Notes under the pieces: generated by a model
What the model was told of the DNA's origin: nothing
Seen by the model: only the letters and a program-made list of their open reading frames with translations
Database searches by the model: none
Virus record (IMG/VR): IMGVR_UViG_3300041809_000571
Location: 115,841-179,840 of that record
DNA length: 64,000 nucleotides
Strand: one strand, 5' to 3'
Source of the DNA: a virus
Position numbers and translations under genes: made by a program
In this document: piece after piece, positions 2,821-38,171 of the stretch
Numbering within the stretch: position 1 is the first letter of the stretch
Layout of the letters: every line of letters starts with the position of its first letter

Positions 2821-2835
2821 GCAGAATAATACACA
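2821..2835 (-). promoter_or_regulatory. GTGTATTATTC-N3-ATG element upstream of the radical SAM gene
   Basis: Reverse complement of 2821-2835 reads TGTGTATTATTCTGC followed by ATG. Confidence 0.4.
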
Positions 2836-2849
2836 AAAATTGGAAAAAT

Positions 2850-2865
2850 CCCAGTATTATTCTTT
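2850..2865 (+). promoter_or_regulatory. CCCAGTATTATTC-N3-ATG element (late-promoter-like -10 / leaderless start signal)
   Basis: One of 4-5 copies at fixed 3-nt spacing from an ATG, with no SD. Confidence 0.45.
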
Positions 2866-3279
2866 ATGAAACTTACTCCCGTGATGGTTCACCGGTCGGA
2901 CTTCGACACCGACCAGATTATCCACGCCCGGTGGGACCGGCTATTTGAGTTCGAGTCATTGACATGGGATGCTGAATTCCTCGCCATGGGTTACCACCAC
3001 CCTCATGCACCCGGAGAAATGCCGGGGTTCGATGGTAACGTTGTTCTGGGACTTAGCACCATTTTCACCGATATTCCCAAGAAATTCCCCATCAAAGACC
3101 TTCTCACCTTTCTACAAGGACGAGCGCAGTCCTGCTGCATGGAAGAAGTGGAGCAACGCCTCACCCTGATGGCAAGACGCTGTTCCCAACTTGACTGTGC
3201 GGGGGATAGCCCAAATCCCACGGACGAAGAGAAGAGAGTGGCGGAATTAGCCGCTAAAAGGGTTGGATTTTACACATGA
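2866..3279 (+). CDS. Hypothetical protein
   Basis: 137-aa ORF directly preceded by the motif CCCAGTATTATTC plus 3 nt. Confidence 0.55.
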   Translation: MKLTPVMVHRSDFDTDQIIHARWDRLFEFESLTWDAEFLAMGYHHPHAPGEMPGFDGNVVLGLSTIFTDIPKKFPIKDLLTFLQGRAQSCCMEEVEQRLTLMARRCSQLDCAGDSPNPTDEEKRVAELAAKRVGFYT

Positions 3280-3509
3280 GAATGAGCAAAGCTGACAAGA
3301 AAGAACAAGCCGACCAGAAGAAGGTGTGGAAAGTCTACCCACAGGCTACCTATTGGGGAGTGGACGACAAGAAGAACTTCGGCCCCCTCGCTGCCTGCGA
3401 GGTATACCAGTCGGACGCCTTCGATGCCCCGGTAATCGGGGAAGGTAACACTTCCGGGGAAGCGTGGGCGGATGCCGTCAAGCGGCTTCCTAAAAAGGCA
3501 AAAAAGTGA
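3276..3509 (+). CDS. Hypothetical small Lys-rich protein
   Basis: 77-aa ORF; ATGA overlap with the upstream gene. Confidence 0.5.
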   Translation: MRMSKADKKEQADQKKVWKVYPQATYWGVDDKKNFGPLAACEVYQSDAFDAPVIGEGNTSGEAWADAVKRLPKKAKK

Positions 3510-3751
3510 AGTGGCTTTGTTGGTTATGGGACCTACGTGGGAAGATTACGGTGTAGCCTTCTTTGTTCGTTGCAAGTGGTGCGGCAAGAAGGTGTGTTCC
3601 CGCTAGACACGAAAGCCGGGCATCTCAGCCCGGCCCCCGTGTAGATATGGACCACCCCCTTTTAGGTGAGATTCGGCAACTTCAACCTCCCTTCCTCGGG
3701 TTTTCCTCGGGGTATGTCAGGTCTCATGGCGAGTCTCCTTTTTCTCTCGGA

Positions 3752-3774
3752 AGTGGTATTACTATGATTAAGGG
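3752..3774 (+). promoter_or_regulatory. Promoter box GTGGTATTACT followed by AAGGGG
   Basis: Variant motif copy upstream of 3784. Confidence 0.35.
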
Positions 3775-3783
3775 GTGAATAGT

Positions 3784-4086
3784 ATGGGTTTGGTGGAACG
3801 CTTGATATCGCTGACGAAAGCGGATAAGGTCAAGTGGAATGCTCGGTCAGTTCCGGGAGATTTCACTGTCGCCTTCACTTGGGTGGACGGATTTGAAATC
3901 TCCATCACCAACTTTTACAACAAGAGGGACCTCTCCGGGAAAGAAGTGGAACGTACCATGTGTATCACCAGTCCCCTCGGAATCTCAGTGGACATCAACG
4001 CCTGTCTGAAAGACATTCAAGAACTCGTCAGCCTCATCTGTGAAAAAACCATAACTGATTTCATCGGAAAACTGGCTGCTCTATGA
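3784..4086 (+). CDS. Hypothetical protein
   Basis: ORF 3775..4086; start placed at ATG 3784, 9 nt after AAGGGG; preceded by a TGGTATTACT promoter-like box. Confidence 0.5.
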   Translation: MGLVERLISLTKADKVKWNARSVPGDFTVAFTWVDGFEISITNFYNKRDLSGKEVERTMCITSPLGISVDINACLKDIQELVSLICEKTITDFIGKLAAL

Positions 4087-4769
4087 TAGACCACCTAAGT
4101 CTCACCGAAGCTACCGAACGTGCCTGCGGAGAGCCTACCCTGATAGATGCCCTCTCTTGGATTTGTATTTGGGAAACTGAGCGTGTTGTCAAACAGGCAC
4201 TAAAGGGATGCCGCTTAGGAGATGACGGTCAAATCTACGTCAAGCCGGGCATGGCAACACCGAAGGGCGGCGGCTGGGACACTTGTTTTACCATCTGTCT
4301 GGCAGCAGTCATGGAGGAGTGGGACAAGCGTCATCCCAAGAAGCGGTGGGGGCCGAATGCAACACAGGAAACACCAGAGGAGCGGCTTACCCGGCTGGAA
4401 GGCAAGGTACACGAATTGGAGAAGGTCCACCCGGATTTGAACGCTCTGGCGTCCAAGGTGGATAAGAGCAGTGCCGAAATGGGCCGTCTACGGGTCCTCG
4501 TTGGCGAGAAGCTGCCGGGGTTGGAAGACATCAGGGACCAGTGCCGCCACGCACACGCCGTGGGCAAGGAAGAAGTAGCGGGAGTCAGGCGGCTTGCTGA
4601 TGCCTGCGCTACGAGGTTGGAATTAAATCATGTAAGGGACAAGGTAACTTCCGTACTTAAAGAATTGGGATGGACCATCGCATGGGACGAGGATGGACAA
4701 CCAATCTGGAACGGAAGTAGAGAGAGGCATAATGGACCGGTCGATTCAAAAATTATTGGGTATAGCTGA
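4083..4769 (+). CDS. Hypothetical protein with coiled-coil segment
   Basis: 228-aa ORF; ATGA overlap with the upstream gene. Confidence 0.5.
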   Translation: MIDHLSLTEATERACGEPTLIDALSWICIWETERVVKQALKGCRLGDDGQIYVKPGMATPKGGGWDTCFTICLAAVMEEWDKRHPKKRWGPNATQETPEERLTRLEGKVHELEKVHPDLNALASKVDKSSAEMGRLRVLVGEKLPGLEDIRDQCRHAHAVGKEEVAGVRRLADACATRLELNHVRDKVTSVLKELGWTIAWDEDGQPIWNGSRERHNGPVDSKIIGYS

Positions 4770-6246
4770 TGATGCTAAACGCATCTATCGTTTCATCGAA
4801 GGTGATGTGCAGAAGGAAGAGTATCAGTATTGCCAGATGTTGGACCAACTGGTATTCGGCGACAAGGGCTACGTGGATACCCTCGGACAAACGTGGGAGA
4901 TGATTCACGACCCCCGCTTCCAGAAGATTGAAAACCTGTTCCTCACCGAGCGCAAGGCAGTCTTTGGCGGCAACGCCAGCATTGGACGCCAGTACATGAC
5001 AGCGGATGGCATCTTCGTATCCATCACCACAGCGGACTTGGAAGAGTACACGGAAATCCTCGGGGAGGGCCGGTACTTCCACACCATCATTGCCCACCCG
5101 AATGAGACTTGCCCCGTGCGTATCTGGAATTTCCGGCTCTACCCGGATATGATTGCCGCCAACAAGTGGGAAGTCCCCAAGCCCGGACCCGGCTTGAAAT
5201 GCACATGCAGCGGAGAGCAGGAGGGGCTGGTCATCAACGCCGACTCCCAATTGGTAGCATGGGTTAAAAACCCTCGGCAGCTTAAAGATGCCTCTGACGA
5301 TTTCTTGTGGGCGTTCATTAGACGGGAGTGTCCCAACTATTTCTCACAGGGAGGCAGTCCCAATCCATTGGCAAGGCGGTTATTCGACTTGTTCCGGGCA
5401 GACCTCTTGGGGCTTATCGCCGACTACACACCCACGCCATTAGTGGACGCCTTCATCGAACTCGAAACCGGGGACATAACCACCGGGGCTACAGAGGATG
5501 AAAAACCCAAGGTTTTCCTCGAAGCCGACATCTTGGAGAAGGCACTAACTTACCGGGCAACCATGCGAGCCACGGCGGCAAAGATTTTGAAGCAGGTGGG
5601 AATCGTGGCGCAACTGCGGTCACTACCTGACCCCCGGCTCACCGATTTTGAACGGGACCACATGCTCCGCATGGTCTATCAGTCCGACTGGCCTGACGAA
5701 AAGGTTCCCATGGTCATGAATTTGATGACCTACTTAAGCAGTGTGACGAGAAGGCCCTATGAGGACCGGCTAAAGGAACAGCTTGCCCGTGCCTCCGAGG
5801 ATGCGCTCGAAGACTGCCGGGACCTGCAATCCGGCAAGCTCGAACCCATCAACCAAGAAACCGAACCGGCTGTGGAAACTGACCTTGACCCCCACGCCGC
5901 CGTGCTGGAGTCCATCCTCCGCAATCCTCTCAAGGCAGAACTGTTTCTTATTTGGGTGGGAGCGGAAGAGCGGGGAGAGAATGGCAGGACCGAGGAGGAG
6001 AAACTCAACATGCGCCGGTTGAACTCCATCCTCACCCCTATGTTCACGGACCCGGCGTTTGAGTTGGACGAAAATAAGTACTGGGAATACATGGACCAAG
6101 CCAACCGGCTCGGCTACTATGGTAAACCCACTGTGCAGGTTGTCAAGGAGGCGGTCCTCGGCGGCGGCAAACCCGGTGACCCTTGTCTCCTTAAGGAAGT
6201 CTACGAGCAGAAAAAGAAAGATGAACCCACCGAGGAGGCGAAATGA
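4693..6246 (+). CDS. Hypothetical protein (517 aa)
   Basis: Long ORF; the alternative start ATG 4732 has an AGAGAGG RBS; no recognisable catalytic motif. Confidence 0.6.
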   Translation: MDNQSGTEVERGIMDRSIQKLLGIADDAKRIYRFIEGDVQKEEYQYCQMLDQLVFGDKGYVDTLGQTWEMIHDPRFQKIENLFLTERKAVFGGNASIGRQYMTADGIFVSITTADLEEYTEILGEGRYFHTIIAHPNETCPVRIWNFRLYPDMIAANKWEVPKPGPGLKCTCSGEQEGLVINADSQLVAWVKNPRQLKDASDDFLWAFIRRECPNYFSQGGSPNPLARRLFDLFRADLLGLIADYTPTPLVDAFIELETGDITTGATEDEKPKVFLEADILEKALTYRATMRATAAKILKQVGIVAQLRSLPDPRLTDFERDHMLRMVYQSDWPDEKVPMVMNLMTYLSSVTRRPYEDRLKEQLARASEDALEDCRDLQSGKLEPINQETEPAVETDLDPHAAVLESILRNPLKAELFLIWVGAEERGENGRTEEEKLNMRRLNSILTPMFTDPAFELDENKYWEYMDQANRLGYYGKPTVQVVKEAVLGGGKPGDPCLLKEVYEQKKKDEPTEEAK

Positions 6247-6578
6247 GGGAAGTCGGAATACGAGTAGGGGCAATTTGCAGCGGTGATGAAAAGACCAAAA
6301 TCCTGAAATTCTTCGGGTACGGCGTGTACGAGGGAGACTTCATTCCCCCAGCCAATGCCGGGGGTTTTGCTCAAATGTGCCACGAGGCCGAAGTCACCAA
6401 CCCCCGCATCAAGCTGGACAACGGCAACACCGTGTGGGGCGGCGAATGTTGGTGGGGACCGGAAGACCAAATCAAGAAAAGGGTCGATGCCTGCATTGCC
6501 GCTGGCTGGAAAATTGAGGATGTCGGCATTAAGAAGCTACGGACCGCCGAGAAGAAAGCAAAGAAAGCGAGGAAGTAA
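6243..6578 (+). CDS. Hypothetical protein
   Basis: 111-aa ORF; ATGA overlap with the upstream gene. Confidence 0.5.
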   Translation: MREVGIRVGAICSGDEKTKILKFFGYGVYEGDFIPPANAGGFAQMCHEAEVTNPRIKLDNGNTVWGGECWWGPEDQIKKRVDACIAAGWKIEDVGIKKLRTAEKKAKKARK

Positions 6579-6943: not shown

Positions 6944-6952
6944 GAGACCACC

Positions 6953-7712: not shown

Positions 7713-7715
7713 CTT

Positions 7716-8063: not shown

Positions 8064-8128
8064 CACTAAAGTAGACTACGACATAGCACCGTCGTACCCC
8101 CCTCAATGGGCAAAAAACCCCAGCAAAC

Positions 8129-8140
8129 TGTGTATTATTA
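8129..8140 (+). promoter_or_regulatory. TGTGTATTATTA -10-like box about 30 nt upstream of the sugar transferase start
   Basis: Same core as the GTATTATT family, but followed by a leader with a GGAGG SD. Confidence 0.35.
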
Positions 8141-8169
8141 CCTATCAGAAAATCTGTACGGGAGGAACA

Positions 8170-9418: not shown

Positions 9419-9443
9419 TCCGGCCATTAAAAAACGTCGATTT

Positions 9444-9476
9444 CCTCCCATTCCGTGGTATACTGAGAGTGGGAGG
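9444..9476 (+). promoter_or_regulatory. Extended -10 promoter box (GTGGTATACT) embedded in an anti-SD/SD hairpin (CCTCCCA ... TGGGAGG)
   Basis: One of five copies of the TGGTATACT/N7/GGAGG arrangement; inverted repeat flanks the box. Confidence 0.5.
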
Positions 9477-9487
9477 AAACATCGACT

Positions 9488-11998
9488 ATGAAATTCGGAA
9501 CCGTATCAGGCAATACCGAGACCAGCGGTGCTATCGGACAGCAACAGCAGTTTTCCATTCAAAGCTCGGCAATCGCTTTCGAGACACTCTCGTCTCGCTT
9601 GTACTCCGACCCAATCCAAGCGGTTATCCGGGAACTGTCCTGCAACGCCTATGACGCCCATGTGATGACGGGCAAGGCGGATGAGCCGTTCGTTGTGACG
9701 CTGCCGACGAACTTTGACGCTTCCTTCAAGATTCGGGATTTCGGACCGGGCATGTCGAACGACGAAATCCTCAGCCTCTACTGCACCTACTTCTCCAGCA
9801 ACAAAAACTCCCGCAATGACGCCATCGGCGCTTTCGGCTTGGGCAGCAAGTCGCCCTTCGCCTACTTCCTGCGCAACGGCAAGACGGGCGGATTCGCCGT
9901 CATCAGCTACCAGAGCGGTGTGGTTCGCACGTATGCGGCCTTCATTGACAACGGGTTACCCAAGATTGAATTGCAGTCGGAAGCCGAGACTACCGAGCCT
10001 GATGGTCTGGAAGTCATCTTCCCGGTCGAACAGCGGGACGTGTGGGAATTCACCAACAAAGCCAAGCTGGTGTTCGAGTTCTTCACTCCCCTGCCGACCT
10101 GCAACGTGCAATTGAACTGCCAGAAACCGGAATACTCCATTGAAGGAGAGGGGTGGGGACTGCGCAAGAATTCCTCCACCAATCAGGGCAACGGCGTTCG
10201 TGCCATCATGGGCATGGTGCCCTACTCGGTCGGCAACATCGACATCAGCCGTTTGAGCGAGAATCAAAAGAGCATCATTGCGATGCCCTTCGACATCTTC
10301 TTTGCGATTGGCGAAGTCAACCCTGCGGTTAGCCGGGAGACCCTCCAACTCGATACCCCCACGATTACCGCCATCCAAGCGAAGTTGGATGCCATCCACA
10401 CCGAACTGCTTGAAACGGTGAAGAAGAAGGTGGACAAAGCGGCTAATGAGTGGGAAGCCAAGATGGTCATTTTCAACCTGCTCCAGCACCAAGCCATCGG
10501 TCGCATCATCAACGCTGCCGCTCAGAAAGGTGCCTTCGCCGGGACCTATACCAACTTCACCCTGAGTGCTGGCAAAGACATGAAGGTTAACCAGTTAGAC
10601 TACTCCAGCATCCAAGTGACGCATTACGACAGGTCCCACAGCGGGCGTGGTAGGGCCGACCGGGAAACGCTGTTCACCTTGACCCCGGAAGAACTGGACT
10701 CCACCCTCTTGAAAACAAAGGGTGACGCAGCCAAGCGCAGTGCGTATGAGGTCGAAATCGAAGCGAACCCCAATGTGGTTTTCATCTTGGATGACATGAA
10801 ACCCACTCGTGCCAATCGCTACATCAACTACTTCATTAAAAACAAGGCGTATGACAACCCCGAAAAGCGGGACGCCTATCTTATCAGCCCCCGCCCGGAA
10901 GTCGCCGGGAGTGGAAAGGTCGCCTCGGAAGTCGCCGCTCTGCTCGCCGCCCTCGGAAATCCTCCGATGACGCTTGCCAGCAGCTACGAGACGAAGTACA
11001 AAGACAAGATGCCCAAGAAGAACTATGTGAAGAGGGGCAAGGGGTTGCTGGTGTTCGTGGAGCGCTCTTGGTACCGTGGTCGCCATGGTTCTTGGCGGCA
11101 GGCATGGGCGACGGCGGATGAAACCGTCCCCGAGATGCCGGGAACGAAGTACTACGTGGTGTTGGCGAAGGGCAACTCACGGGCAATGACCGCCGTCATC
11201 CCCGGCGTGGACAGCCCGACCGACCTTTACAACCTTATCAACAAGATGCGTGCTGCCAAGGTGTTCGGGTTCGGAGACACCGAAAAGATTTACGGCGTCC
11301 GGGAGAATTCCAAGCTGCTCAAGAACTCCAATTGGGTTCCCCTCCGGTCGGTCATTGACAAGACCATCACCAAGGTCATGAACCCCACCAAGGAACTGGC
11401 AATGAGCCTGCGCTTGAGGCCGTTCAGCAATGATTGGGAGTTCGTAATGAAGCAGGTCGCCAAGACCCTGCCTCTGTCCACTACCAGTGCTTTCCAGAAC
11501 TTCTCGGTCCAGTTGGAAGCCGCTCGCACCGCCTCCAAAGACCGGGACGAAAACCTTGTCTACGTCCTGAACGCTGTCATGTACAAGGTGACTAACGTCA
11601 CTGATTTCAGCGAAATGTGGGAGAAGGTCGAAAAACAGTATCCCCTGTTGTCCCTGATGCGGAAGGATAGCTACAGCGGCAGCAAGGAAGAAGCCGACGC
11701 CTTGATTGTCTACCTGCGGATGATTGACGAAATGATTGAAAAGGCGAACGCTCCGGTCGCTCCCCCGGCCCCGGTCGTGGACAAGTCGGAAGCTTACCGG
11801 CTCCGTAAAGCTCGCAACCCAAAGGCTTACATGGAGCGCAAGCGGCAACAGGCGGCAACCATGACGCAAGTAGCGAACGAGGATGACGCCTTAGTAGCAG
11901 GGGAGTTAACAATCGTTGATGGAACCCTCGTCCCGACCGATGCCGCCTGTGCCTGCGCCGAATTTGAAAAAGAATTGTCGGTTGCAGCGGCGGTGTAA
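9488..11998 (+). CDS. GHKL-family (Hsp90/histidine-kinase-like) ATPase domain protein, rIIA-like
   Basis: N box RELSCNAYDA, G1 box IRDFGPGMS and G2 box GAFGLGSKSPFAY; 836 aa, followed by a 400-aa partner, as in rIIA-rIIB pairs of large phages; TGGTATACT promoter box upstream. Confidence 0.6.
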   Translation: MKFGTVSGNTETSGAIGQQQQFSIQSSAIAFETLSSRLYSDPIQAVIRELSCNAYDAHVMTGKADEPFVVTLPTNFDASFKIRDFGPGMSNDEILSLYCTYFSSNKNSRNDAIGAFGLGSKSPFAYFLRNGKTGGFAVISYQSGVVRTYAAFIDNGLPKIELQSEAETTEPDGLEVIFPVEQRDVWEFTNKAKLVFEFFTPLPTCNVQLNCQKPEYSIEGEGWGLRKNSSTNQGNGVRAIMGMVPYSVGNIDISRLSENQKSIIAMPFDIFFAIGEVNPAVSRETLQLDTPTITAIQAKLDAIHTELLETVKKKVDKAANEWEAKMVIFNLLQHQAIGRIINAAAQKGAFAGTYTNFTLSAGKDMKVNQLDYSSIQVTHYDRSHSGRGRADRETLFTLTPEELDSTLLKTKGDAAKRSAYEVEIEANPNVVFILDDMKPTRANRYINYFIKNKAYDNPEKRDAYLISPRPEVAGSGKVASEVAALLAALGNPPMTLASSYETKYKDKMPKKNYVKRGKGLLVFVERSWYRGRHGSWRQAWATADETVPEMPGTKYYVVLAKGNSRAMTAVIPGVDSPTDLYNLINKMRAAKVFGFGDTEKIYGVRENSKLLKNSNWVPLRSVIDKTITKVMNPTKELAMSLRLRPFSNDWEFVMKQVAKTLPLSTTSAFQNFSVQLEAARTASKDRDENLVYVLNAVMYKVTNVTDFSEMWEKVEKQYPLLSLMRKDSYSGSKEEADALIVYLRMIDEMIEKANAPVAPPAPVVDKSEAYRLRKARNPKAYMERKRQQAATMTQVANEDDALVAGELTIVDGTLVPTDAACACAEFEKELSVAAAV

Positions 11999-12014
11999 GA
12001 ATTTTCCGAAATTT

Positions 12015-12047
12015 TCTCTCAATTCGAGGTATACTATAAGTGAGGAG
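12015..12047 (+). promoter_or_regulatory. Promoter box GAGGTATACT followed by GAGGAG
   Basis: Motif copy upstream of the rIIB-like gene. Confidence 0.4.
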
Positions 12048-12057
12048 ACACAACCTT

Positions 12058-13272
12058 ATGGCAAAAGCTACACCCATTCCGTATCAGTTGCAGGACAATT
12101 ATGTGAGCGTTCTCGTCAACGGACGCCCCTTTCAACTCTTGGCATCCCATCCCACCTTCCGCAAGATGGTCAACGCCCTCAAGATGAAGCGGTGGGCGAA
12201 GGTGCCTGACCTTGTTAATTTGGCGCAGTCCATTTCCAACCGGTCGCACGGCAACGTGGAAGTGAAGAACGGGGAAGTGTACTACAAGGGTTCCCCGGTC
12301 CACTCTTCCCTGACCGCTCTCATGCTCCGCCTGATTGAGGCCGAGCAGCCGATCAACCACATGTTGAAGTTCAGGGACCACCTGTTCTCCAACCCCCGCC
12401 CGGAGGCAGTGGAGGGTCTGTACGAATTCCTGACCCTCTACCAAATGCCGGTGACGGACGACGGCTGTTTCGTCGCCTACAAGCGGGTGGACCACAACTA
12501 CAAGGACATCCACACTCACACCGTGGACAACCATGTGGGCGCTTGCCCGGTCATACGTCGTCGGGACGTGGACAAGGACCGCAGCAACCCTTGCTCCCGT
12601 GGATTCCATTTCTGCTCTCGTGCGTACCTGTCCGGCTTCCCCGGCGAACACCTGATGGCTATCAAGGTCAACCCTGCCGACGTGGATGAAATTCCCGAGG
12701 TCCAGTGCGGCAAGGGTCGGACGTGGCGGTATGAAGTCATCGCCGAAATTCCGAACGGCGACTACTCCGACAAGGACGCCGCCTACTTCCAGAACCCGCT
12801 GATTTCCATCGGTCGTGACCGCAAGCTGTTGCTCGGCAAGTTGCTCGCCCTGCCGCTCGTAAAGCGGTTGGTCGGTCGGACCGAGCGCCAGTTGGCGGAA
12901 TACAAGAAGGCCCGGCGCAAGCTCGGTGACATCCACCCCAAGGTGGAACACGCTGGCTTGACCACCAACGCCCTCAAGAAGGCGTCGTTCGGTCGGCTCC
13001 AACAGTGGTATGAGCGGTTCACCGCCATTGCCCCCGAACTGCCCGGCGTTTCGGCAGTGTTTGTCAACCCCACCTACCCGGCTCGTGTCGCCGCCAAGTT
13101 GACGGTCACACAGGTCGCCAAGCAGATGGGCATGAAAGCATCCTTGGTCTACAAGCTGGAACGGGCGGAAACCCCGAGCCAGCGGTTCATTGATGACTAC
13201 ATTGGGGCTGTCATGGCTCTCAAAGACCAGCCCAATGGCGTTTCCTTCGCCGCCGCTACCGTAGCGGCATAG
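12058..13272 (+). CDS. Hypothetical protein, possibly rIIB-like (by synteny only)
   Basis: ORF 12040..13272 with start at ATG 12058, 10 nt after GAGGAG; GAGGTATACT box upstream; GC-rich hairpin downstream. Confidence 0.5.
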   Translation: MAKATPIPYQLQDNYVSVLVNGRPFQLLASHPTFRKMVNALKMKRWAKVPDLVNLAQSISNRSHGNVEVKNGEVYYKGSPVHSSLTALMLRLIEAEQPINHMLKFRDHLFSNPRPEAVEGLYEFLTLYQMPVTDDGCFVAYKRVDHNYKDIHTHTVDNHVGACPVIRRRDVDKDRSNPCSRGFHFCSRAYLSGFPGEHLMAIKVNPADVDEIPEVQCGKGRTWRYEVIAEIPNGDYSDKDAAYFQNPLISIGRDRKLLLGKLLALPLVKRLVGRTERQLAEYKKARRKLGDIHPKVEHAGLTTNALKKASFGRLQQWYERFTAIAPELPGVSAVFVNPTYPARVAAKLTVTQVAKQMGMKASLVYKLERAETPSQRFIDDYIGAVMALKDQPNGVSFAAATVAA

Positions 13273-18700: not shown

Positions 18701-19684
18701 ATGTGCTTTGATGAGCCGCTCCTAACTCGTGATGAGTTCCGGGAATCAGTGTTTGCCCGTGATGGGTACAAGTGTGTCGTGTGCGGGTCAAGGGAGAATG
18801 GCCTTGACGCCCACCATATCATCGACCGCAAACTCTTCTACAATGGAGGCTACTACCTCAGCAACGGTGTATCCCTGTGCTCTGATTGTCACATCAAAGC
18901 GGAAGACCCCAATGCCATCCGAGAATTCCTACCCTTCGCTCTCCGGGAGCGGGCGGGCATCAAGGAAATCATCCTACCAGACAAGCTGGACGCCAAGTGC
19001 GGAAACAACTACGACAAGTGGGGCAACTACATTTCCACCCTCATGGTGAAGTATCCCCACACGCCCCACGTGCTATGGTCGCCGGGGTACGACGCACAGG
19101 AAGATATGGTGCTGACCACCACTGACCACTGGGCGGGCAAGGAGGTAGTCATCACCGAAAAGATGGACGGTGAGGGCACCACCATGTATCAGGACAACTA
19201 CCATGCCCGGTCCTGCACGTATAAGCCGCATGTCAGCCGCAGCCGGGCGAGAGCAATATGGGGCCGCATCCGGTATGATATCCCCTTCGGCTGGCGCATT
19301 TGCGGGGAGAACGTCGCCGCCGAGCACAGCATCTCCTATGACAACCTGCCGGGGTACTTCATGGTATTCTCCATCTGGCAGGAGTTTGACGTGTGCCTTT
19401 CTTGGGACCAGACAGAAATTTGGTGCGGTCTTTTAGAGTTGCCCACCGTTCCAGTATTATGGAGAGGGACGTGGGACGAAGCCAAGTGCCGGGACATCAT
19501 CGACCACCTTGACTTGAAAAAGCAGGAAGGCATCGTCATCCGCCCGGCAGATGAATTCCGGCTGGACCAGATAGCCGACCCGGTCAACGGAGTCATGGGA
19601 AAGTGGGTCCGCAGGGGCCACGTTACCACCGACGAGCACTGGATGGATAAGCCAGTAGTTTGGAACAAACTAAAGGGGGAATAA
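18701..19684 (+). CDS. HNH nuclease fused to ATP-dependent RNA/DNA-ligase-like nucleotidyltransferase domain
   Basis: N-terminal HNH (CVVCGS ... DAHHIIDR ... NGVSLCSDCH); C-terminal ligase motifs I (EKMDGEG), IV (EGIVIRP) and V (GKWVRRGH). Confidence 0.6.
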   Translation: MCFDEPLLTRDEFRESVFARDGYKCVVCGSRENGLDAHHIIDRKLFYNGGYYLSNGVSLCSDCHIKAEDPNAIREFLPFALRERAGIKEIILPDKLDAKCGNNYDKWGNYISTLMVKYPHTPHVLWSPGYDAQEDMVLTTTDHWAGKEVVITEKMDGEGTTMYQDNYHARSCTYKPHVSRSRARAIWGRIRYDIPFGWRICGENVAAEHSISYDNLPGYFMVFSIWQEFDVCLSWDQTEIWCGLLELPTVPVLWRGTWDEAKCRDIIDHLDLKKQEGIVIRPADEFRLDQIADPVNGVMGKWVRRGHVTTDEHWMDKPVVWNKLKGE

Positions 19685-28209: not shown

Positions 28210-28219
28210 GAGAATATCT

Positions 28220-29017
28220 ATGCCGATGAATCTCAACAACACGACTCCCGTCGCTCCCGCTGGCAACACTAACGTCTCGTGGCAGAAAGACGGCAGCGGA
28301 AATGTATCTGCCTATGTCTCTGCCTCTGGTAGTGCGTCTTCCGGGTTACGTTCGGCGCTTCCCGGTTCACCCACAACGGGACAAGTCTACTACTGCACTG
28401 ATGCCCCGTGGGTCTATGAATATAATGGGTCGAAATGGGTAGCCTACTGGAGGGGGGCTCCCGCCGACGACCCGTCGCTGCTGACTGCGACTCCCGTGCA
28501 GTATTATCCGAATACCTCTGCTCACTCTGCCACTACCTCCTTGGGAGGGGTTAGCCTCAATGGAACCTCCACGGGTCCCGACACTTGCTACTATTACTGC
28601 TGGCCGGTAACAGCGTCCACAACCCTGAAAGTCAGCTTGGGGCTGACAGGGGGCGGCGGATGCGCCGTCATCAACACCAATACCAATGCCGGGATGCTGT
28701 TCAGGTTTACGGACTACCATACCATGTACTACACACAGTACAACCTAACCACCAGTTATGTCGCTAACCAATCAAACTTTACCACGGGTGGTGCATGGCC
28801 CGAAGGCTACTGGGGGCTGACGTTCGGCTCGAACTCGTGGGCGCTGAACTGTTTTGTAGACCCCAACATGACTACTAATGCGTGGGGCGGAGCGTTTGCC
28901 TTATCGGGAACTTTAGCCTATGTGGGGACAAACTTCACCCATATAGGGTTTGGGGCAAGTTCCACTGGGGCTATAGGTCCCTCTTGGCTCTGGCATTGGA
29001 GGCAGGTGAGTGCATAG
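28220..29017 (+). CDS. Tail fibre tip/alternative receptor-binding protein
   Basis: N-terminal NLNNTTPVAPAGNTNVSWQKDGSGNVSAYVS module; RBS GGAG. Confidence 0.65.
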   Translation: MPMNLNNTTPVAPAGNTNVSWQKDGSGNVSAYVSASGSASSGLRSALPGSPTTGQVYYCTDAPWVYEYNGSKWVAYWRGAPADDPSLLTATPVQYYPNTSAHSATTSLGGVSLNGTSTGPDTCYYYCWPVTASTTLKVSLGLTGGGGCAVINTNTNAGMLFRFTDYHTMYYTQYNLTTSYVANQSNFTTGGAWPEGYWGLTFGSNSWALNCFVDPNMTTNAWGGAFALSGTLAYVGTNFTHIGFGASSTGAIGPSWLWHWRQVSA

Positions 29018-29043
29018 GGACTTTTTGGGCAATCCCCAGATAA

Positions 29044-29059
29044 CCCAGTATTATTCCAT
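29044..29059 (+). promoter_or_regulatory. CCCAGTATTATTC-N3-ATG element
   Basis: Identical 13-mer to the 2850 copy. Confidence 0.45.
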
Positions 29060-29824
29060 ATGAGACCACAGCTTTCAGAAATCCTCATCAAGGTACTGAA
29101 TCCCCAAGGCACCTCCGAGGCCGGACAAATCATCCACCTTGCCCTCCTTCGTTATTGTGACTCCAAACGCAAGTGGCAAAACACTGAATACCTATGGCTG
29201 GGGATACAGGAGCACAAACGTCTGACCGGGATATACCCCGTCCGTGATGCCATGGCGGCATGGCTCTATCATGCCGCTGAAACCAACGATGAGGAGATGG
29301 GAGCAGTGGCCTTCCTCCGGGACAGCCAAAGACTGGGCTTTACTTTCGATGAGGCTGAGAATTACGTCATTCCCCTCATCATGCAATCCCGCCCCTCTCG
29401 AACAAGCGCTTCGGTGGTAGGGGATATGCGCATCGCCATATTGGGACAGAACCGGGTGAAGTACCTTGCTTACTCTCGAAAACTCCAGCAATCATGGAAA
29501 TTTCTCGGTCCCCACCAATGGGAACAGGGGAGAATAGCCGCCCTCAAAGAGTTGCTATCCCGGCCCCGGCTATATTTCCGGGAAGAGTTCGAGTCCAAAA
29601 TGGCCGGAATCGCCAAGGAGAACATGCAAGCGGAGCTTTCATTACTCGGCTACATTCCTCCTCCTGCTAAAGAACCGGAACCGGTGGAAGTACCCGCTCC
29701 CCTCGTAGTGCCCATAAGAATAATGAGCATGGAGGAGATAGTTAAAAAGCAAGAGGAAGCTAAGGCGGCTATGGGTATGACCGGTCCTACCGGTCCAGCC
29801 GGGCCTCCTCCAGCGGCGGAATAA
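29060..29824 (+). CDS. Hypothetical protein (possible fibre assembly/accessory protein)
   Basis: Preceded by CCCAGTATTATTC plus 3 nt; C-terminus has a short GMTGPTGPAGPP collagen-like bit. Confidence 0.55.
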   Translation: MRPQLSEILIKVLNPQGTSEAGQIIHLALLRYCDSKRKWQNTEYLWLGIQEHKRLTGIYPVRDAMAAWLYHAAETNDEEMGAVAFLRDSQRLGFTFDEAENYVIPLIMQSRPSRTSASVVGDMRIAILGQNRVKYLAYSRKLQQSWKFLGPHQWEQGRIAALKELLSRPRLYFREEFESKMAGIAKENMQAELSLLGYIPPPAKEPEPVEVPAPLVVPIRIMSMEEIVKKQEEAKAAMGMTGPTGPAGPPPAAE

Positions 29825-30019: not shown

Positions 30020-31039
30020 GTGCCAAGAATGCCTAAAAAGCAGTGCAAACGGCTTGACCCTAACATCAAGAGCGAGGCTGAGGAAGAACTTGCCAGCAGC
30101 CTAAAGCATCTTATCGTCGGACAGACACGGGCAATTGAGGTACTCGTAGACGCATACGAAACCTTCCGTGCTGGTTTAGCCCCGCCTGACCATCCTGTCG
30201 GAAATCTAATATTCCTCGGTCCCACCGGTTGCGGGAAGACCTACGTCATTGAAGTAATGGCGGAGCTTCTCTTCGGTACAAAAAAAGCCCTCAAAAAGGT
30301 GGACTGCGCCGAGTTCCAACATTCTCACGACATTGCCAAACTGGTGGGTTCCCCACCCGGATACTTGGGACATCGGGATACACCAGCCTACTTACGTCAG
30401 GAAAGTCTGGATGCCCACCATACCAAGGAATTGGCATTGACACTTTTACTCTTTGATGAGTTTGAGAAGTCTAACGATGCCCTGTGGAACTTGTTACTTG
30501 GAATACTTGACAAAGGTACACTTACCTTGGGTGACAACAAGCAAAGCACCTTCGATAAATGCCTCATCATCATGACGGGAAATCTCGGTTCCCGAGAAAT
30601 GCAATATCTCGCCCGAGGTGGACTGGGATTCGCCGGGTCTTCCACAAAGAGCAGTGAGGCATTCAACAAAGAGGTGGAAACGGCAGGACTAGAAGCCGCC
30701 AAAAAACGCTTCACCCCGGAGTTCCTCAACCGCATAGATGAGATAGTGGTGTTTCACTCCTTGGATGAGAAGCAACTCAAACAGGTGGTGGAATTGGAAA
30801 TCGAACAGGTGCAGAGCCGGGTGTTAAAGATGCGAGACCCCCGGCAGTTCGTCTTGGAATTCACCCCCGCCGCCAAAGACTTGCTGATAGCCCAAGGAAC
30901 GGACTTAAAGAACGGGGCACGTCCTCTCAAACGGATAATGGAGAAGCTGGTAGTAAAGCGGCTTTCCCGTTTTCTTAACACCAAACAAGTCAACATGGGG
31001 GGACCTCATCGTAGTGGACAAAGACAACGAAGACCTTAG
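30020..31039 (+). CDS. ClpA/ClpB D2-type AAA+ ATPase (stand-alone)
   Basis: LIVGQTRAIEVLVDAYETFRAGLAPPDHPVGNLIFLGPTGCGKTYV matches the ClpB D2 sensor and Walker A region; Walker B LLLFDEFEKS; C-terminal VVFHSLDEKQLKQVVELEI; GTG 30020 or ATG 30029 start. Confidence 0.7.
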   Translation: MPRMPKKQCKRLDPNIKSEAEEELASSLKHLIVGQTRAIEVLVDAYETFRAGLAPPDHPVGNLIFLGPTGCGKTYVIEVMAELLFGTKKALKKVDCAEFQHSHDIAKLVGSPPGYLGHRDTPAYLRQESLDAHHTKELALTLLLFDEFEKSNDALWNLLLGILDKGTLTLGDNKQSTFDKCLIIMTGNLGSREMQYLARGGLGFAGSSTKSSEAFNKEVETAGLEAAKKRFTPEFLNRIDEIVVFHSLDEKQLKQVVELEIEQVQSRVLKMRDPRQFVLEFTPAAKDLLIAQGTDLKNGARPLKRIMEKLVVKRLSRFLNTKQVNMGGPHRSGQRQRRP

Positions 31040-34216: not shown

Positions 34217-34230
34217 AATAACCCATATTT

Positions 34231-34263
34231 CCCTCCACTTTGTGGTATACTGAGAGTGGAGGG
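34231..34263 (+). promoter_or_regulatory. Extended -10 promoter box (GTGGTATACT) in an anti-SD/SD hairpin (CCCTCCA ... TGGAGGG)
   Basis: Same architecture as 9444-9476, with compensatory base changes in the stem. Confidence 0.5.
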
Positions 34264-34266
34264 AAC

Positions 34267-34731
34267 ATGGCAAAGAGCGATTTCGTCACTCGCAAGACCA
34301 TCTGTCCCAACGAGCATTGCGGTAACACCAGATACGAGCGGACTTACGCTCGCAACGATAGTGGCACATTAGTGCCGGTGTGGAAGTGTATCAACTGCTT
34401 ACGGGAATACCCTCGAACGGGGCGCAACCGGCGCACCAACCATATGCGAGCAGTGGACATGTGGCGGAAGCTTCGTGACGAATGGAAGCCGGTAGACGAG
34501 AAGCTCATGGCTCTGGCGGAAGCCAAGGTCATCAAGAACGGAGCGATTCTGGTTTACGGCTCCGCCTACAACTACCACATGGACCGGTTGCTCATGGAAG
34601 AGCGCATGTCGAACTTCAACGTCCGCTACTGCGGTGAGCAGGCTCGCCGCCAACTGGCGGAAGCGGTGAAGTTCATCGCTGAGGAGGAATCCAAGTGTCA
34701 ATCACCCATGTCGTTATCACCAACGCCGTAG
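34267..34731 (+). CDS. Zn-finger protein
   Basis: CPNEHCG ... CINC; TGGTATACT box plus GGAGGG upstream. Confidence 0.5.
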   Translation: MAKSDFVTRKTICPNEHCGNTRYERTYARNDSGTLVPVWKCINCLREYPRTGRNRRTNHMRAVDMWRKLRDEWKPVDEKLMALAEAKVIKNGAILVYGSAYNYHMDRLLMEERMSNFNVRYCGEQARRQLAEAVKFIAEEESKCQSPMSLSPTP

Positions 34732-35383: not shown

Positions 35384-35398
35384 TCCTGCTGATTTTGT

Positions 35399-35427
35399 CC
35401 TCGGCGTGGTATACTGTAATTGAGGGG
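35399..35427 (+). promoter_or_regulatory. Extended -10 promoter box (GTGGTATACT) followed by GAGGGG; CCTC upstream
   Basis: Motif copy upstream of the CCA-adding enzyme gene. Confidence 0.45.
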
Positions 35428-35432
35428 GATAC

Positions 35433-36797
35433 ATGACTCCGAAGGAAGCGGCTGTCGAAGTTCTCAAGACCCTGTACAAGAATAATTACCGCTCTTACCT
35501 CGTGGGTGGATGCGTGCGAGACCTTATCCTTGGGCGTGAGCCAAAGGATTATGACATCACCACCGAGGCCCTCCCCGAGCAGGTAGAAGCCGTTTTCCCC
35601 AAGACTGTTGCCGTGGGCAAGTCCTTTGGTGTCATCACCGTGGTTATGGGTGACGTGAACATCGAAGTGGCAACCTTCCGTTCAGATGGCGCTTACAGCG
35701 ACAACCGCCGACCTGACTCCGTGACCTTCACTCCTTCCGCTGCCGACGACGTAAAGCGCCGGGACTTCACCATGAACGGCTTGCTCTGCGTGGGTGAAGC
35801 CGACACTTCCAGCGTAGCCAACTACGAGACTTCGCTTGCCGGGTCGAATGTCCATTACACCGTGCAGGAAGGCGAGTCCCCGGACGGCGAATCTCACACC
35901 TATGGAATAATGGATTTCGTCGGCGGCATGGACGATATCAAGGAGCGGAAGATTCGTTGTATCGGCGACCCCAACGAACGCTTCAAGGAAGATGCCCTGC
36001 GGATGCTGCGGGCCTGCCGGTTCGCCGCTCAGTTACGATTTCACATTGATGATGACACCCTCTTGGCTATTCAGGAGAATGCCGCTCTTATCACCAAGGT
36101 TTCGGTGGAGCGTATCGCCGTGGAACTCGTCAAGATTCTGACCAGTCCCCACCCGGTCAACGGGTTGGTGCCCTTGGTCACCACCGGTCTTATGGAGCAC
36201 CTGCCTTTTAGTGAGGCAATCAAGAAGGGTCTTGCTTACATCCTGCGCCGGTTTGGTAAGTTCCAGACTAAGGATGCTAATTTGGCACTGGCAATGTTCT
36301 TCGCCCACACTGACCCTACCATGGTTCGGGTGGATTACCTATTGAAGAAGGTTCTCAAGCTGTCCAATGACCACGTTAACGCCGCAGCCGGGGCGCTGGA
36401 CACCCTTTACGACATGCTCTTCGCCGGTCTTTTCAATCTCAAGCACGCTCAGCACCGGCTCAAGAAGATGATGCGGAATCCGGGTGCTATGCTCGGCGTT
36501 GAACTGTTGGAGCAGAACCTTGCGTTGAACTTTCCACCCTTCCCTGATGGAGACGTGAAGGATTTCCACAGTCTCATCGAATACCTGCGGGCATTGACCC
36601 CGGAAGAAATCAACCCTCCCAAGTTTGTGACTGGCGAGGATTTGATGGCGATGGGAATGGAGCCTTGCCGGGAAATGGGCAATATCCTTGACGATGTTGA
36701 GGATATGCAGCTTAATGGGGAACTGCGGGACCGGACTCATGCCCTCCTCGTGGCGGAGCGTTATGTCTCCGACTTCAAGAACGGAGTCCTGCGATGA
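35433..36797 (+). CDS. tRNA nucleotidyltransferase (CCA-adding enzyme / polyA polymerase head-domain family)
   Basis: LVGGCVRDLILGREPKDYDITT ... GKSFGVITVV ... EVATFRSD is the class II head-domain signature; TGGTATACT box upstream. Confidence 0.8.
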   Translation: MTPKEAAVEVLKTLYKNNYRSYLVGGCVRDLILGREPKDYDITTEALPEQVEAVFPKTVAVGKSFGVITVVMGDVNIEVATFRSDGAYSDNRRPDSVTFTPSAADDVKRRDFTMNGLLCVGEADTSSVANYETSLAGSNVHYTVQEGESPDGESHTYGIMDFVGGMDDIKERKIRCIGDPNERFKEDALRMLRACRFAAQLRFHIDDDTLLAIQENAALITKVSVERIAVELVKILTSPHPVNGLVPLVTTGLMEHLPFSEAIKKGLAYILRRFGKFQTKDANLALAMFFAHTDPTMVRVDYLLKKVLKLSNDHVNAAAGALDTLYDMLFAGLFNLKHAQHRLKKMMRNPGAMLGVELLEQNLALNFPPFPDGDVKDFHSLIEYLRALTPEEINPPKFVTGEDLMAMGMEPCREMGNILDDVEDMQLNGELRDRTHALLVAERYVSDFKNGVLR

Positions 36798-37345
36798 CCA
36801 AGTACGCCAAGGTCGGAGAGAAGGTCATCGTCAAAGAGTTCATCACCTTTGAGAGGGTGGGCTACCCGCTCACCCTCGATATCGTCCGGCAGAAGTTCAG
36901 CGGGGAAGTGGAGACCGCACTTCGCAAGATGGAGTTCATCCTGACTACCCCACGGGGACCAATCACTGAGGTATTTCATGAGCCTCCCAAGGTGGATAGT
37001 TTCGTGGAACGGCAACTGGTCCGGGCGATATGCGGATACATCATGCGCCGGGAGAACTTCGGCGGCAGGGAACGAAAAATCTTCGAGGGTCCGCCTCCCC
37101 CGTCCACCTGCGAGGACCAGACTGGCAAGCTGCTTCCCGTGTTGGCAAGGCGTATGGTAACGACCGGGACTTACTACCCGGCCTATGGCGGCGGGTGGGG
37201 TTACTCGGACTATGAGGATTACGAGCCTGCGGAGCTTTGCGACACCAAACAGCACTGTGTCTACACCTTGGAGGGAGTAAGCCACTTGGGATTCCCCTTC
37301 AACTTCAACATTCTGGCGTCCCACTGCGAGAGGGAGGCACAATGA
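36794..37345 (+). CDS. Hypothetical protein
   Basis: 183-aa ORF; ATGA overlap. Confidence 0.5.
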   Translation: MTKYAKVGEKVIVKEFITFERVGYPLTLDIVRQKFSGEVETALRKMEFILTTPRGPITEVFHEPPKVDSFVERQLVRAICGYIMRRENFGGRERKIFEGPPPPSTCEDQTGKLLPVLARRMVTTGTYYPAYGGGWGYSDYEDYEPAELCDTKQHCVYTLEGVSHLGFPFNFNILASHCEREAQ

Positions 37346-37602
37346 AAAAGTGCCGCTATCACGTTGACCACAAACCTTGGGTTATCTGGAGTGCCTGTGG
37401 CATCGGGATGCCATGGTTCAAATACATCATCACCTACGGGCAGTATCCCCACAAGGGTTGGGGAGCCAGAAAAGCCGCCAAGCGGATAATTGAGATGGAA
37501 TCCCAAAGGAACATGCGACCGGAGTTCTTCATCGCTCTACCCGAGGGGAAAATACCTCGCTGCCCGGCACCGAGGAGAATCCGACACCGGGGGCGAGCAT
37601 GA
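37342..37602 (+). CDS. Hypothetical basic protein
   Basis: Start at ATG 37342 after GGGAGG. Confidence 0.45.
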   Translation: MKKCRYHVDHKPWVIWSACGIGMPWFKYIITYGQYPHKGWGARKAAKRIIEMESQRNMRPEFFIALPEGKIPRCPAPRRIRHRGRA

Positions 37603-38153
37603 ACGGGGCGGAACTGACGATGATGATTATCCACTACCCGGACATCGAAATCCGGGCGTGGGACCCGGTCACTGGCGACTATCAAACGGTGTCTGCTATC
37701 GAGTTTAATGCCGCTGCCGAAGCGGTAGAGTTACACACATTCAAAACCATCAAACTAAAGGAGAAAACCATGGTATTCGTATTCGGTTCCAACGAAAAGG
37801 GCATTCACGGCGGCGGAGCGGCGAAATTCGCTGTCTTGAAACATGGAGCTATCTACGGTCAGGGCGTGGGACGGCAAGGCAACAGCTACGCCGTTCCCAC
37901 CTGCTGCCGTCCGGTTCATACGGGAGCGGACTGCCTCTCCTATGATGAAATCCAGAAATACGTGGACCAGTTCATCCAGTACGCCAAGGACAATCCGACC
38001 GAGGAATTCCAAGTCACACAGGTCGGTTGTGGCCTCGCCGGGCTTAACCCCGCCGACATCGCCCCCATGTTCGCCGCCGCCCCGGATAACTGTCTTTTTG
38101 ACAGCGCATGGGAACAGTGGCTCCCCGGCAAGAGGTTTTGGGGAACTTTCTAG
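37599..38153 (+). CDS. Hypothetical Rossmann-like protein with Gly-rich motif FGSNEKGIHGGGAA
   Basis: Conserved-looking glycine loop; family not assigned. Confidence 0.5.
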   Translation: MNGAELTMMIIHYPDIEIRAWDPVTGDYQTVSAIEFNAAAEAVELHTFKTIKLKEKTMVFVFGSNEKGIHGGGAAKFAVLKHGAIYGQGVGRQGNSYAVPTCCRPVHTGADCLSYDEIQKYVDQFIQYAKDNPTEEFQVTQVGCGLAGLNPADIAPMFAAAPDNCLFDSAWEQWLPGKRFWGTF

Positions 38154-38158
38154 GTTTT

Positions 38159-38171
38159 CAGTATTATAGGT
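38159..38171 (+). promoter_or_regulatory. CAGTATTATA-N3-ATG element
   Basis: Variant copy preceding the unannotated micro-ORF 38172. Confidence 0.4.

Follow-up and report, generated by a model that had tools for sequence, protein, structure and literature searches.

What is the role of the promoter-like word AGTATTATYC, which is strongly conserved and stands 3 bases before the ATG of a few genes lacking a Shine-Dalgarno (SD) sequence in a 364-kb phage and its relatives? We addressed this in the window, the whole 64-kb stretch of DNA that was analyzed, and in 16.5 kb of extra genome beyond it. The core GTATTATTC occurs three times in the window against 0.12 copies expected from shuffles, and 0 of 100 shuffles reached three. 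One copy lies on the minus strand at 2832..2824 (context TGTGTATTATTC), is followed by TGC and then ATG 2820..2818, and is the proposed -10 element of a radical SAM gene. The other two are on the plus strand within CAGTATTATTC. The copy at 2852..2862 (9-mer at 2854..2862) is followed by TTT and ATG 2866 and is identical in relatives L127-L130, and the copy at 29046..29056 (9-mer at 29048..29056) is followed by CAT and ATG 29060 and has seven-way comparative support. As the first-pass annotation had reported, these two share an identical 13-mer, CCCAGTATTATTC, at 2850-2862 and 29044-29056. Its observation of divergent copies between 2821 and 2865 was likewise confirmed: the two copies, at 2824-2862, make up a perfect 9-bp inverted repeat, GAATAATAC-N21-GTATTATTC, 30 bp from centre to centre, filling the 45-bp intergenic spacer with one copy facing each gene. 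Since this spacer needs two promoters, its two copies sit where promoters must be. A wider word, CAGTATTAT, is found five times in the window (0.22 expected), always on the plus strand and co-oriented with genes, and is the top over-represented non-tRNA 9-mer in 80.5 kb of the genome.

The ATGs at 2820 (minus strand), 2866 and 29060 (both plus strand) are each the first start codon of their own ORF, and we regard all three as real gene starts. The SD-less radical SAM gene (1840..2820, minus strand, 326 aa) is the first gene of the divergent pair, and its Pfam domain (PF04055, residues 19-181) begins at residue 19, which argues that ATG 2820 is the true start. Its SD-less partner (2866..3279, plus strand, 137 aa) corresponds to the N-terminal part of a 352-aa ORF of relatives, which is split in the window by an 824-bp insertion at 3258-4081. 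The third SD-less gene (29060..29824, plus strand, 254 aa) has a weak PHROG phosphohydrolase match and is followed by a ClpB-like AAA ATPase gene; the codons just after its ATG carry three synonymous changes and one R-to-K change relative to the nearest relative, which supports this start as well. An AGGAGG-type word of at least 4 nt is absent 3-12 nt upstream of all three ATGs, and GGAGG or AGGAG precedes most other genes in the window.

The first-pass annotation had counted four equivalent SD-less starts. This holds for the three exact sites and was overstated for the fourth, which is ambiguous. There, CAGTATTATA (38159..38168, plus strand; the copy at 38161 reads GTATTATA) is followed by GGT and then ATG 38172, so that, aligned on TATTAT, it lies one base closer to the ATG than at the other three sites. 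The gene is a membrane micro-ORF (38172..38345, plus strand) conserved in relative L131, with a product of 57 aa, or of 52 aa from a second in-frame ATG at 38187 that has GGGGG 9 nt upstream. Because of this SD-like word before the alternative ATG, the site may be a short-leader promoter. A further copy, TGTGTATTATTA (8129..8140, plus strand; GTATTATTA at 8132), is separated by 29 nt from ATG 8170, whose GGAGG SD occupies 8161-8165. As previously proposed, we read it as a promoter at ordinary distance from the SD-led sugar transferase gene. Two copies are intragenic: CAGTATTAT at 19452..19460 (plus strand), within an HNH/RNA-ligase gene, and a perfect CAGTATTATCC at 28499..28509 (plus strand), a possible internal promoter. 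No ATG follows the latter, showing that the word can also occur away from starts. The TATTAT core is also present ahead of a tRNA cluster (L146, position 1863, TGGTATTAT) and past tRNA-Trp, ahead of a non-coding stretch (L146, position 5739, CAGTATTATAG), and relative L131 carries TGGTATTAT-ataagtg at 4072 (plus strand) and 3933 (minus strand). TATTAT and TATACT hexamers can replace each other in the extended -10 class.

Sites occur only about once every 15-20 kb, and the 16.5 kb beyond the window contained no further one. A scan of 80.5 kb for TANNNT at -11 showed no enrichment beyond the genes at 2820, 2866 and 29060, which does not support a general role. Of the linked genes, one encodes a radical SAM enzyme, another is a small membrane ORF and two are unknowns, of which one is weakly HD-phosphohydrolase-like. 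None of this points to a time of expression, and the suggestion that the element marks late transcripts is unsupported. It is a mark of a few genes rather than of late or structural genes at large.

Comparison across relatives was based on seven distinct orthologous loci of the 29060 gene, on separate metagenome contigs, whose proteins are 48-83% identical. AGTATT(A/G)T(C/T)C-N3-ATG was present in 7/7, and no SD-like word of at least 4 nt was found within 20 nt upstream at any of them. The spacing and an 11-nt core are kept where the surroundings have diverged: mean pairwise identity is 0.87 in the motif versus 0.34 in the upstream flank, 0.35 in the N3 and 0.46 in the first 27 coding bases. 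At 9/9 sites the first T of the hexamer (TATTAT, or TATTGT in two orthologues) is at -11 from the ATG, a pyrimidine is at -1, A is at +1 and the start codon is ATG, not GUG or UUG. Across the orthologues the T, A and final T of the hexamer are invariant and only its fifth position varies, and this T-A-x-x-x-T profile with Y-1/A+1 fits a -10 hexamer plus start site. The motif still tracks the ATG in L235, where the N-terminus has another length, and in L233 it corrects a wrongly called start by indicating the true ATG. Conservation beyond the needs of TANNNT (the AG upstream, both middle Ts and the C at -4) hints at a more specific reader. Elsewhere in IMG/VR, 5 of 120 chance matches to the pattern lay at plausible ORF starts, compared with all exact copies in the clade.

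Several known promoter classes were compared with these sites. Canonical sigma-70 promoters, whether of the -35/-10 or of the extended -10 form, were rejected, as there is no TTGACA-like -35 at 16-18 nt and no TG at -15/-14. No -35 box is conserved across the orthologues, the TG extension is absent at every site (instead of TGn, the upstream triplet reads CAG, TAG, GAG or GTG), and a sigma-70 consensus scan was not enriched over shuffles and flagged only 29026-29054, at 9/12. A T4-type late promoter was rejected because the element, AGTATTRTYC, does not match the consensus TATAAATA; gp55/gp33 homologues were not found among the proteins scanned (80.5 kb of the 364-kb genome). Promoters of the phiKZ/AR9 virion RNA polymerase type were dismissed since the upstream flanks are GC-normal and unconserved rather than long and AT-rich. 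The sites do show three sequence features of TA-led genes: a TANNNT with its first T about 10-12 nt upstream, no SD and an AUG start. No significant RNA structure is predicted for them, their folds being no better than shuffles (z -0.5 to +0.6).

Taken together, we estimate a probability of about 60% that the element is a promoter with a -10 alone, from which transcription starts at the A of the ATG to yield a leaderless mRNA. AGTATT(A/G)T(C/T)C would be a -10-type element (hexamer TATTAT) acting without a -35 or TG extension. RNA polymerase would start on the A, with five bases (Y-C-Y-N-Y) between it and the hexamer, which lies one base nearer the proposed start than the textbook -12..-7. The mRNA would begin 5'-AUG, and such a message requires no SD. 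Leaderless translation requires an ATG start. Where transcripts read through from upstream genes, this ATG would be internal, SD-less and thus poorly translated, so that expression of these genes would depend mainly on the firing of their own promoter. Junctions of mosaic gene blocks are likewise marked by the conserved word, which probably serves there as a short homology patch for recombination. The first-pass annotation had suggested a -10-like signal placing the 5' end on the ATG. Its promoter part is supported by the fixed spacing, the seven-locus conservation, the pyrimidine before the A, the missing SD and the core before SD-led and RNA genes, while the start position is unproven: we infer it, like leaderless translation and the reading polymerase, from these sequence features. 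The reader we infer by default is the host primary-sigma holoenzyme, roughly two to one over a phage factor. There is a weak hint that the host belongs to the Acidobacteriota.

In bacterial leaderless genes, a TANNNT signal lies about 12 bp upstream of the start (PMC3160421), and in Deinococcus a -10 region adjacent to ORFs has been shown experimentally (PMC12340547); TA-led genes are known in Actinobacteria and Deinococcus-Thermus (PMC3160421; PMC12340547). The phage sites resemble them in having TANNNT about 11-12 nt before the start, no SD, an ATG, a -10 that can act without a -35 and a 5' end predicted at the start codon. Unlike the genome-wide TA-led mode, however, they form a rare class in a genome otherwise made up of SD-led genes; their conserved word far exceeds TANNNT in length, and the start is predicted from sequence. 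The Thermus phages YS40 and Lalka27a also have class-specific -10 elements without a -35 (bioRxiv 10.64898/2026.04.20.719267, citing Sevostyanova et al. 2007). Most of their transcripts are leaderless by 5' mapping, whereas here leaderless messages would be a minority class, proposed from sequence. The Lalka late promoter consensus is TAGGGT versus TATTAT here, and the host lineage of this phage, which comes from a peat metagenome, differs from theirs.

A variant nested in the preferred reading keeps the architecture and the leaderless outcome and has the element read by a phage product, either a sigma-like factor or an RNA polymerase, or by a host polymerase that the phage has appropriated. 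The element would then define a dedicated temporal regulon, on the model of T4 gp55 with its -10-only TATAAATA or of the jumbo-phage polymerases. We consider this the unlikelier share, although every site lacks a -35 box and TG extension and the eleven conserved positions exceed what a housekeeping -10 needs. In addition, a leadered promoter class in the same phages drifts (TGGTATACT in the window versus TGTATAAT in L231) and the element stays constant, which suggests a different reader. Precedents are the AR9 virion polymerase, whose promoter ends TATTAT-N6-G(+1) (PMC5312081), and Lalka27a, which pairs leaderless transcripts with a distinct late -10 ascribed to a phage factor (bioRxiv 10.64898/2026.04.20.719267). 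However, no sigma-like or polymerase gene, including RNA polymerase subunits, was found among the scanned proteins of the 64-kb window (genome 364 kb), -10-only promoters are normal for the host polymerase in several phyla (PMC12340547, PMC3160421), and the exchange of TATTAT with TATACT in the extended -10 class also counts against a phage reader. The early promoters of AR9 and phiKZ-like jumbo phages resemble the element in that TATTAT closes the AR9 consensus and the start is fixed 6-7 nt downstream (PMC5312081), but the AR9 element is a long AT-rich 13-mer, its transcripts carry 26-491 nt UTRs, and multisubunit phage polymerase genes were not seen among the scanned window proteins. T4 late promoters (TATAAATA, gp55/gp33/gp45; PMC2988020) are similarly -10-only, AT-rich over about 8-9 bp, without a -35 and often located within the upstream gene or at its end, but their sequence differs and T4 late mRNAs carry leaders and SDs. 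In its fullest form, which we hold to be equally doubtful, a clade-specific factor or polymerase of huge peat phages would read the element and control a small regulon of obligatorily leaderless mRNAs, translated only from their own transcripts. Hairpins hiding the SD in read-through RNA would be a parallel device at SD-led genes, together giving a two-part system that ties translation to promoter choice.

It is less probable still that the element acts in RNA, as a non-SD ribosome-recruiting signal or a protein-binding operator of the T4 RegA kind that fixes the distance to the AUG in a leadered, often polycistronic mRNA. The exact spacing, the tracking of the start codon when the N-terminus changes length and the AU-richness, reminiscent of S1-dependent enhancers, favor this possibility, and a translational signal would also suit L131 and L047, where the upstream co-directional gene ends directly at the element or within it. 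Yet the core also occurs where no start follows (the tRNA cluster promoter, the site past tRNA-Trp and the copy 29 nt before an SD-led gene), two copies occupy promoter positions in the divergent spacer, and the conservation profile is that of a -10 plus start site. The rest of the genome is GGAGG-led, indicating a host ribosome competent for SDs, and no complementarity to the usual 16S 3' tail was seen by inspection. We think it highly improbable that the word serves chiefly as a recombination junction, or as an operator for a DNA-binding protein with the inverted repeat of the divergent pair as its site, so that the ATG adjacency would merely result from cassette exchange. The motif edges 2825 and 29047 are exactly where nucleotide homology with the mosaic relative begins, and in relatives an HNH ORF has mostly taken the place of the radical SAM gene, right up to the motif, which persists as an orphan GTATTATTT. 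The two sites of the relative have a 20-mer in common, AGTATTATTCTTTATGAAAC, and those of the window a different 13-mer, which suggests exchange between sites. T4-type PeSLs are a precedent, being short conserved promoter-containing motifs at indel or replacement junctions between related phages (PMC2839356, PMC4122927). PeSLs combine a full sigma-70 -35/-10 with a terminator stem-loop of the GGGG...CCCC type. The present sites lack a -35, some copies have only short, non-significant GGG...CCC hairpins upstream, and a full PeSL cassette was rejected for want of a -35 and of a stable GC stem-loop terminator. A junction role leaves unexplained the exact spacing with a free N3, the Y at -1, the strict orientation towards the gene and the retention in orthologues of 48-59% identity with unrelated flanks, and the sites at 29048 and in all orthologues are single half-sites. 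As PeSLs are promoters themselves, this would be an added role more than an alternative. Chance, or a functionless relic of local duplication, is effectively refuted: there are only three exact copies, two of them with extra flanking bases in common, but the shuffles, the rarity of chance IMG/VR matches at ORF starts and a seven-way conservation that exceeds the coding level all stand against it.

The element most likely represents a type of signal that is already known, here in a new phage group. Since a -10 beside the ATG leading to leaderless mRNA is well established in bacteria and Thermus phages, a more than modest conceptual gain would require a phage-specific reader. The element provides a concrete regulatory signature for an uncultivated 364-kb phage lineage. 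The motif aids gene calling, as with the L233 start, and flags sites of mosaic gene exchange. It also suggests that some huge phages may mix SD-led and leaderless initiation to separate gene classes.

Our analysis confirmed that the association between the element (AGTATTRTYC-N3-ATG, with its TATTAT hexamer) and certain gene starts is real and non-random. GTATTATTC was present in three copies in the window against 0.12 expected, and every copy was followed by three variable bases and then by a real gene's first ATG. These were a radical SAM gene (copy at 2832..2824, ATG at 2820, minus strand), a gene of unknown function encoding 137 aa (2854..2862, ATG at 2866, plus strand) and a gene of unknown function encoding 254 aa (29048..29056, ATG at 29060, plus strand). 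None of the three has a Shine-Dalgarno (SD) sequence; GGAGG or AGGAG stands at the usual distance in most window genes. Two of the copies had been reported as divergent and flanking the 2821-2865 spacer, and they do point outwards within these 45 bp, forming a perfect 9-bp inverted repeat (2824-2862). Across 80.5 kb of the genome, CAGTATTAT was observed six times (0.22 expected), always on the coding strand, and was the top over-represented 9-mer, tRNA words excepted.

The first-pass annotation had proposed a fixed N3 spacing at four SD-less starts. This holds at 2820, 2866 and 29060. The fourth copy, at 38161 before a membrane micro-ORF (CAGTATTATA-GGT-ATG), lies one base closer to its ATG, and a second in-frame ATG 15 nt downstream is preceded by GGGGG; therefore this site may be an ordinary short-leader promoter. 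A fifth copy had been placed at normal promoter distance from the sugar-transferase gene, and TGTGTATTATTA at 8132 indeed lies 29 nt upstream of that gene's SD-led ATG. For the proposed "late" timing, no support was found. Two intragenic copies, at 28499-28509 (perfect CAGTATTATCC) and 19452-19460 (CAGTATTATGG), have no start codon after them and may be internal promoters. We also noted hairpin-like words of the form GGG(G)-A-rich-CCC(C) lying 0-9 nt before several of the TATTAT copies (29026-29041, 8106-8124 and ~556-571 of metagenome locus L234). They recall the GGGG…CCCC stems of PeSLs, the mobile regulatory cassettes of T4-type phages; their folding was not significant.

Relatives in IMG/VR and JGI comprised a 140-kb contig, IMGVR_UViG_3300018019_000005 (= Ga0187874_10000061), plus fragments, and were mosaics whose blocks matched the window at 66-97% nucleotide identity. 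A metagenome scan recovered only this already-known contig, and query 35433-36797 had no relatives in IMG/VR. At the 2866 and 38161 sites the relatives were too alike to inform; homologues of the 2866 gene were near-identical, plus one matching an internal region. In the nearest relative of the 29060 gene (…GTTCATAGTATTATTCTTTATG), motif and spacing are retained, N3 is altered and 31 upstream nt are missing, so that the motif directly follows the upstream stop codon. A protein search returned homologues of this gene down to 48% identity, and the DNA of seven distinct loci was then compared: the window (CCAGTATTATTC-cat-ATG) and metagenome loci L131 (ATAGTATTATTC-ttt-ATG), L231 (TTCAGTATTATCC-tgc-ATG), L233 (CGCAGTATTATCC-cgc-ATG), L234 (TCCAGTATTATCC-ccc-ATG), L235 (TTCAGTATTGTCC-tgt-ATG) and L239 (CGAGTATTGTCC-ccc-ATG). 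Mean pairwise identity among the seven was 0.87 in the motif (-14..-4), 0.34 in the upstream flank (-40..-15), 0.35 in N3 and 0.46 in the first 27 coding bases past the ATG, and an SD-like word was found at none of them. The called start of L233 is a downstream ATG, but its conserved N-terminus (MRPSTQDII…) starts from the ATG linked to the motif. L235 has an N-terminus of another length with the motif still 3 nt upstream of the ATG, which shows that the element tracks the start codon and not a fixed protein position.

IMG/VR scans for the motif itself returned almost entirely chance matches in unrelated, mostly AT-rich contigs, with a plausible ORF start at only 5 of 120 chance matches; the element is thus not a general phage feature. 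One match, on L047, precedes a homologue of window gene 37770-38153, but is possibly a coincidence because, in this phage of 38% GC, the motif overlaps the end of the upstream coding sequence (…EYYSK*). The radical SAM gene had no relatives in the IMG/VR scan; a protein search found many, the closest (P0016) likewise in a divergent arrangement, and the motif is absent at two of its relatives in unrelated phages (L237, L238).

The best-supported interpretation, to which we assign a probability of roughly 60%, is that the element is the -10 region of a promoter for leaderless mRNA, with the start site inferred. Positions 1-2 (T, A) and 6 (T) of the hexamer are invariant and the sole variable base is position 5, a pattern of conservation typical of a -10 hexamer. 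At this distance from the motif, the A of the ATG falls within the usual start window, and a classical Y-1/R+1 dinucleotide is present, with a pyrimidine at -1 and an A at +1 at all nine sites. This geometry matches the TANNNT signal that bacterial leaderless genes carry ~12 bp ahead of their start codons (PMC3160421), as well as the "-10 region adjacent to ORFs" whose promoter function at leaderless genes was demonstrated by mutagenesis in Deinococcus (PMC12340547). A DNA-level role is further favored because the core recurs without an adjoining translation start: at 8132; in L146, the DNA just upstream of the window, where TGGTATTAT-gtaagtg (1863) heads ~340 nt of non-coding sequence and a tRNA cluster and CAGTATTATAG (5739) lies after tRNA-Trp and before a ~750-nt non-coding stretch; and in the relatives' L131, as a divergent pair, TGGTATTAT-ataagtg and -atgagtg (4072+ and 3933-). 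Moreover, two promoters must fit into the 45-bp divergent spacer, where no -10-like words other than the two copies are oriented towards their genes.

Other readings fared less well. A canonical -35/-10 promoter was rejected: a conserved -35 is absent and a scan with the sigma-70 consensus was not enriched over shuffles. An extended -10 was rejected at the element sites, where the upstream triplet is CAG, TAG, GAG or GTG, and at TGTGTATTAT, because there the TG adjoins the hexamer and the spacer base is missing. As for an RNA structure, the site folds no better than shuffles and Rfam matched no family in the window or around 2700-4300. Nor does the element mark a genome-wide mode: across 80.5 kb, TANNNT at -11 showed no enrichment once the three genes were set aside, and no further element copies lay in the additional 16.5 kb of the same contig.

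Promoters consisting of a -10 alone are normal in several phyla, which counts against the need for a specific factor to read the element. Nevertheless, the 11-nt conservation, the absent -35 and TG, and a word that stays stable while the leadered class of promoters drifts hint at a specific (phage) factor; 22% of the genome was examined for this question. Lalka27a (bioRxiv 10.64898/2026.04.20.719267) and T4 gp55 (PMC2988020) offer precedents.

The leadered class, TTTCCYTCC-N6-7-TGGTATACT-N6-GGAGG…ATG, occurs before rIIA, rIIB, a 154-aa gene and the gene for a CCA-adding-type enzyme (9430-9495, 12000-12065, 34220-34275 and 35385-35440, with TGGTATACT at 9459, 12030, 34246 and 35410). TATTAT and TATACT are interchangeable in this class, which again favors a DNA-level -10, and in the more distant L231 the hexamer is a perfect TGTATAAT. 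At two of the four sites the 5' arm TTTCCTCCC pairs perfectly with the SD GGGAGGAAA, leaving the -10 in the loop; folding gave dG -28.3 kcal/mol (z -6.2) for 9430-9495 and -25.4 kcal/mol (z -4.9) for 34220-34275. Read-through RNA would hide the SD and promoter-initiated RNA would leave it free, a device that would complement the leaderless class. Hiding the SD in read-through RNA is the logic of T4 genes e and soc.

Nucleotide homology with the relative starts exactly at 2825 and 29047, the motif edges. In relatives (L127 8334-8977 vs window 1840-2820), an opposite-strand HNH endonuclease ORF takes the place of ~80% of the radical SAM gene, a replacement that extends to the motif and leaves behind 43 C-terminal aa plus an orphan GTATTATTT. 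The relative's two sites share the 20-mer AGTATTATTCTTTATGAAAC and the window's two share CCCAGTATTATTC, the identical 13-mer seen at first pass. Such junctions resemble PeSL shuffling in T4-type phages (PMC2839356, PMC4122927), although the -35 and terminator stem-loop of PeSLs are missing here. Insertions were seen as well. One of 824 bp relative to the relatives (3258-4081) carries two small ORFs, has no Rfam intron match and splits a 352-aa ORF (L127 9019-10077) into 2866-3279 and 4083-4769. In L001 (4688-5017 and 6227-6742; cf. window 30029-31039) a ClpB-like AAA ATPase gene, its protein 97% identical, is broken by ~1.2 kb, a candidate intron, intein or endonuclease insertion.

The window (GC ~54%) is part of the 364,142-bp metagenomic contig ENA ERZ27249816:k141_1180871 (~127.1-191.1 kb), its genes recur on JGI peat-type metagenome contigs, and its source is a jumbo phage. 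It encodes rIIA and rIIB, a collagen-like tail fibre, an HNH/RNA-ligase gene, the CCA-adding-type enzyme, the ClpB-like ATPase, homing endonucleases and a minus-strand run of giant "polyvalent" proteins. The last (39410-63999 plus L148; 1566, 549, 3027, 1436, 1261 and 2028 aa) carry repeated ART-PolyVal ADP-ribosyltransferase, GNAT, nucleotidyltransferase, cREC_REC and GP88 domains, and a GIY-YIG + NUMOD3 homing-endonuclease gene (44107-44973, minus strand) lies in a low-GC island (GC 0.48) between their genes. Megablast against phages found no close cultured relative, and tblastn matches to rIIA reached at most 33% identity. The top matches of the sugar-transferase gene are Acidobacteriota MAGs; since its other matches spread over many phyla, this only hints at an Acidobacteriota host. 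In the 10 kb just upstream, 26 tRNA genes cluster at L146 2212-9357, with multiple Arg, Lys, Pro and Met and one odd 2-nt anticodon call. The GC-rich non-coding stretches at L146 1872-2211 (~340 nt) and 5733-6485 (~750 nt, preceding an HNH gene), downstream of the TGGTATTAT and CAGTATTATAG promoter-like words, match no Rfam family and are therefore possible unknown RNAs.

Taken together, we predict that RNA polymerase would initiate at the ATG's A, producing a leaderless mRNA. In read-through RNA from upstream genes the same ATG would be poorly translated because it lacks an SD, and expression of these genes would thus be tied to their own promoter. The arrangement is useful for the annotation of this lineage of phages, and its general interest, moderate to low as it stands, would rise if a phage-specific reader exists.
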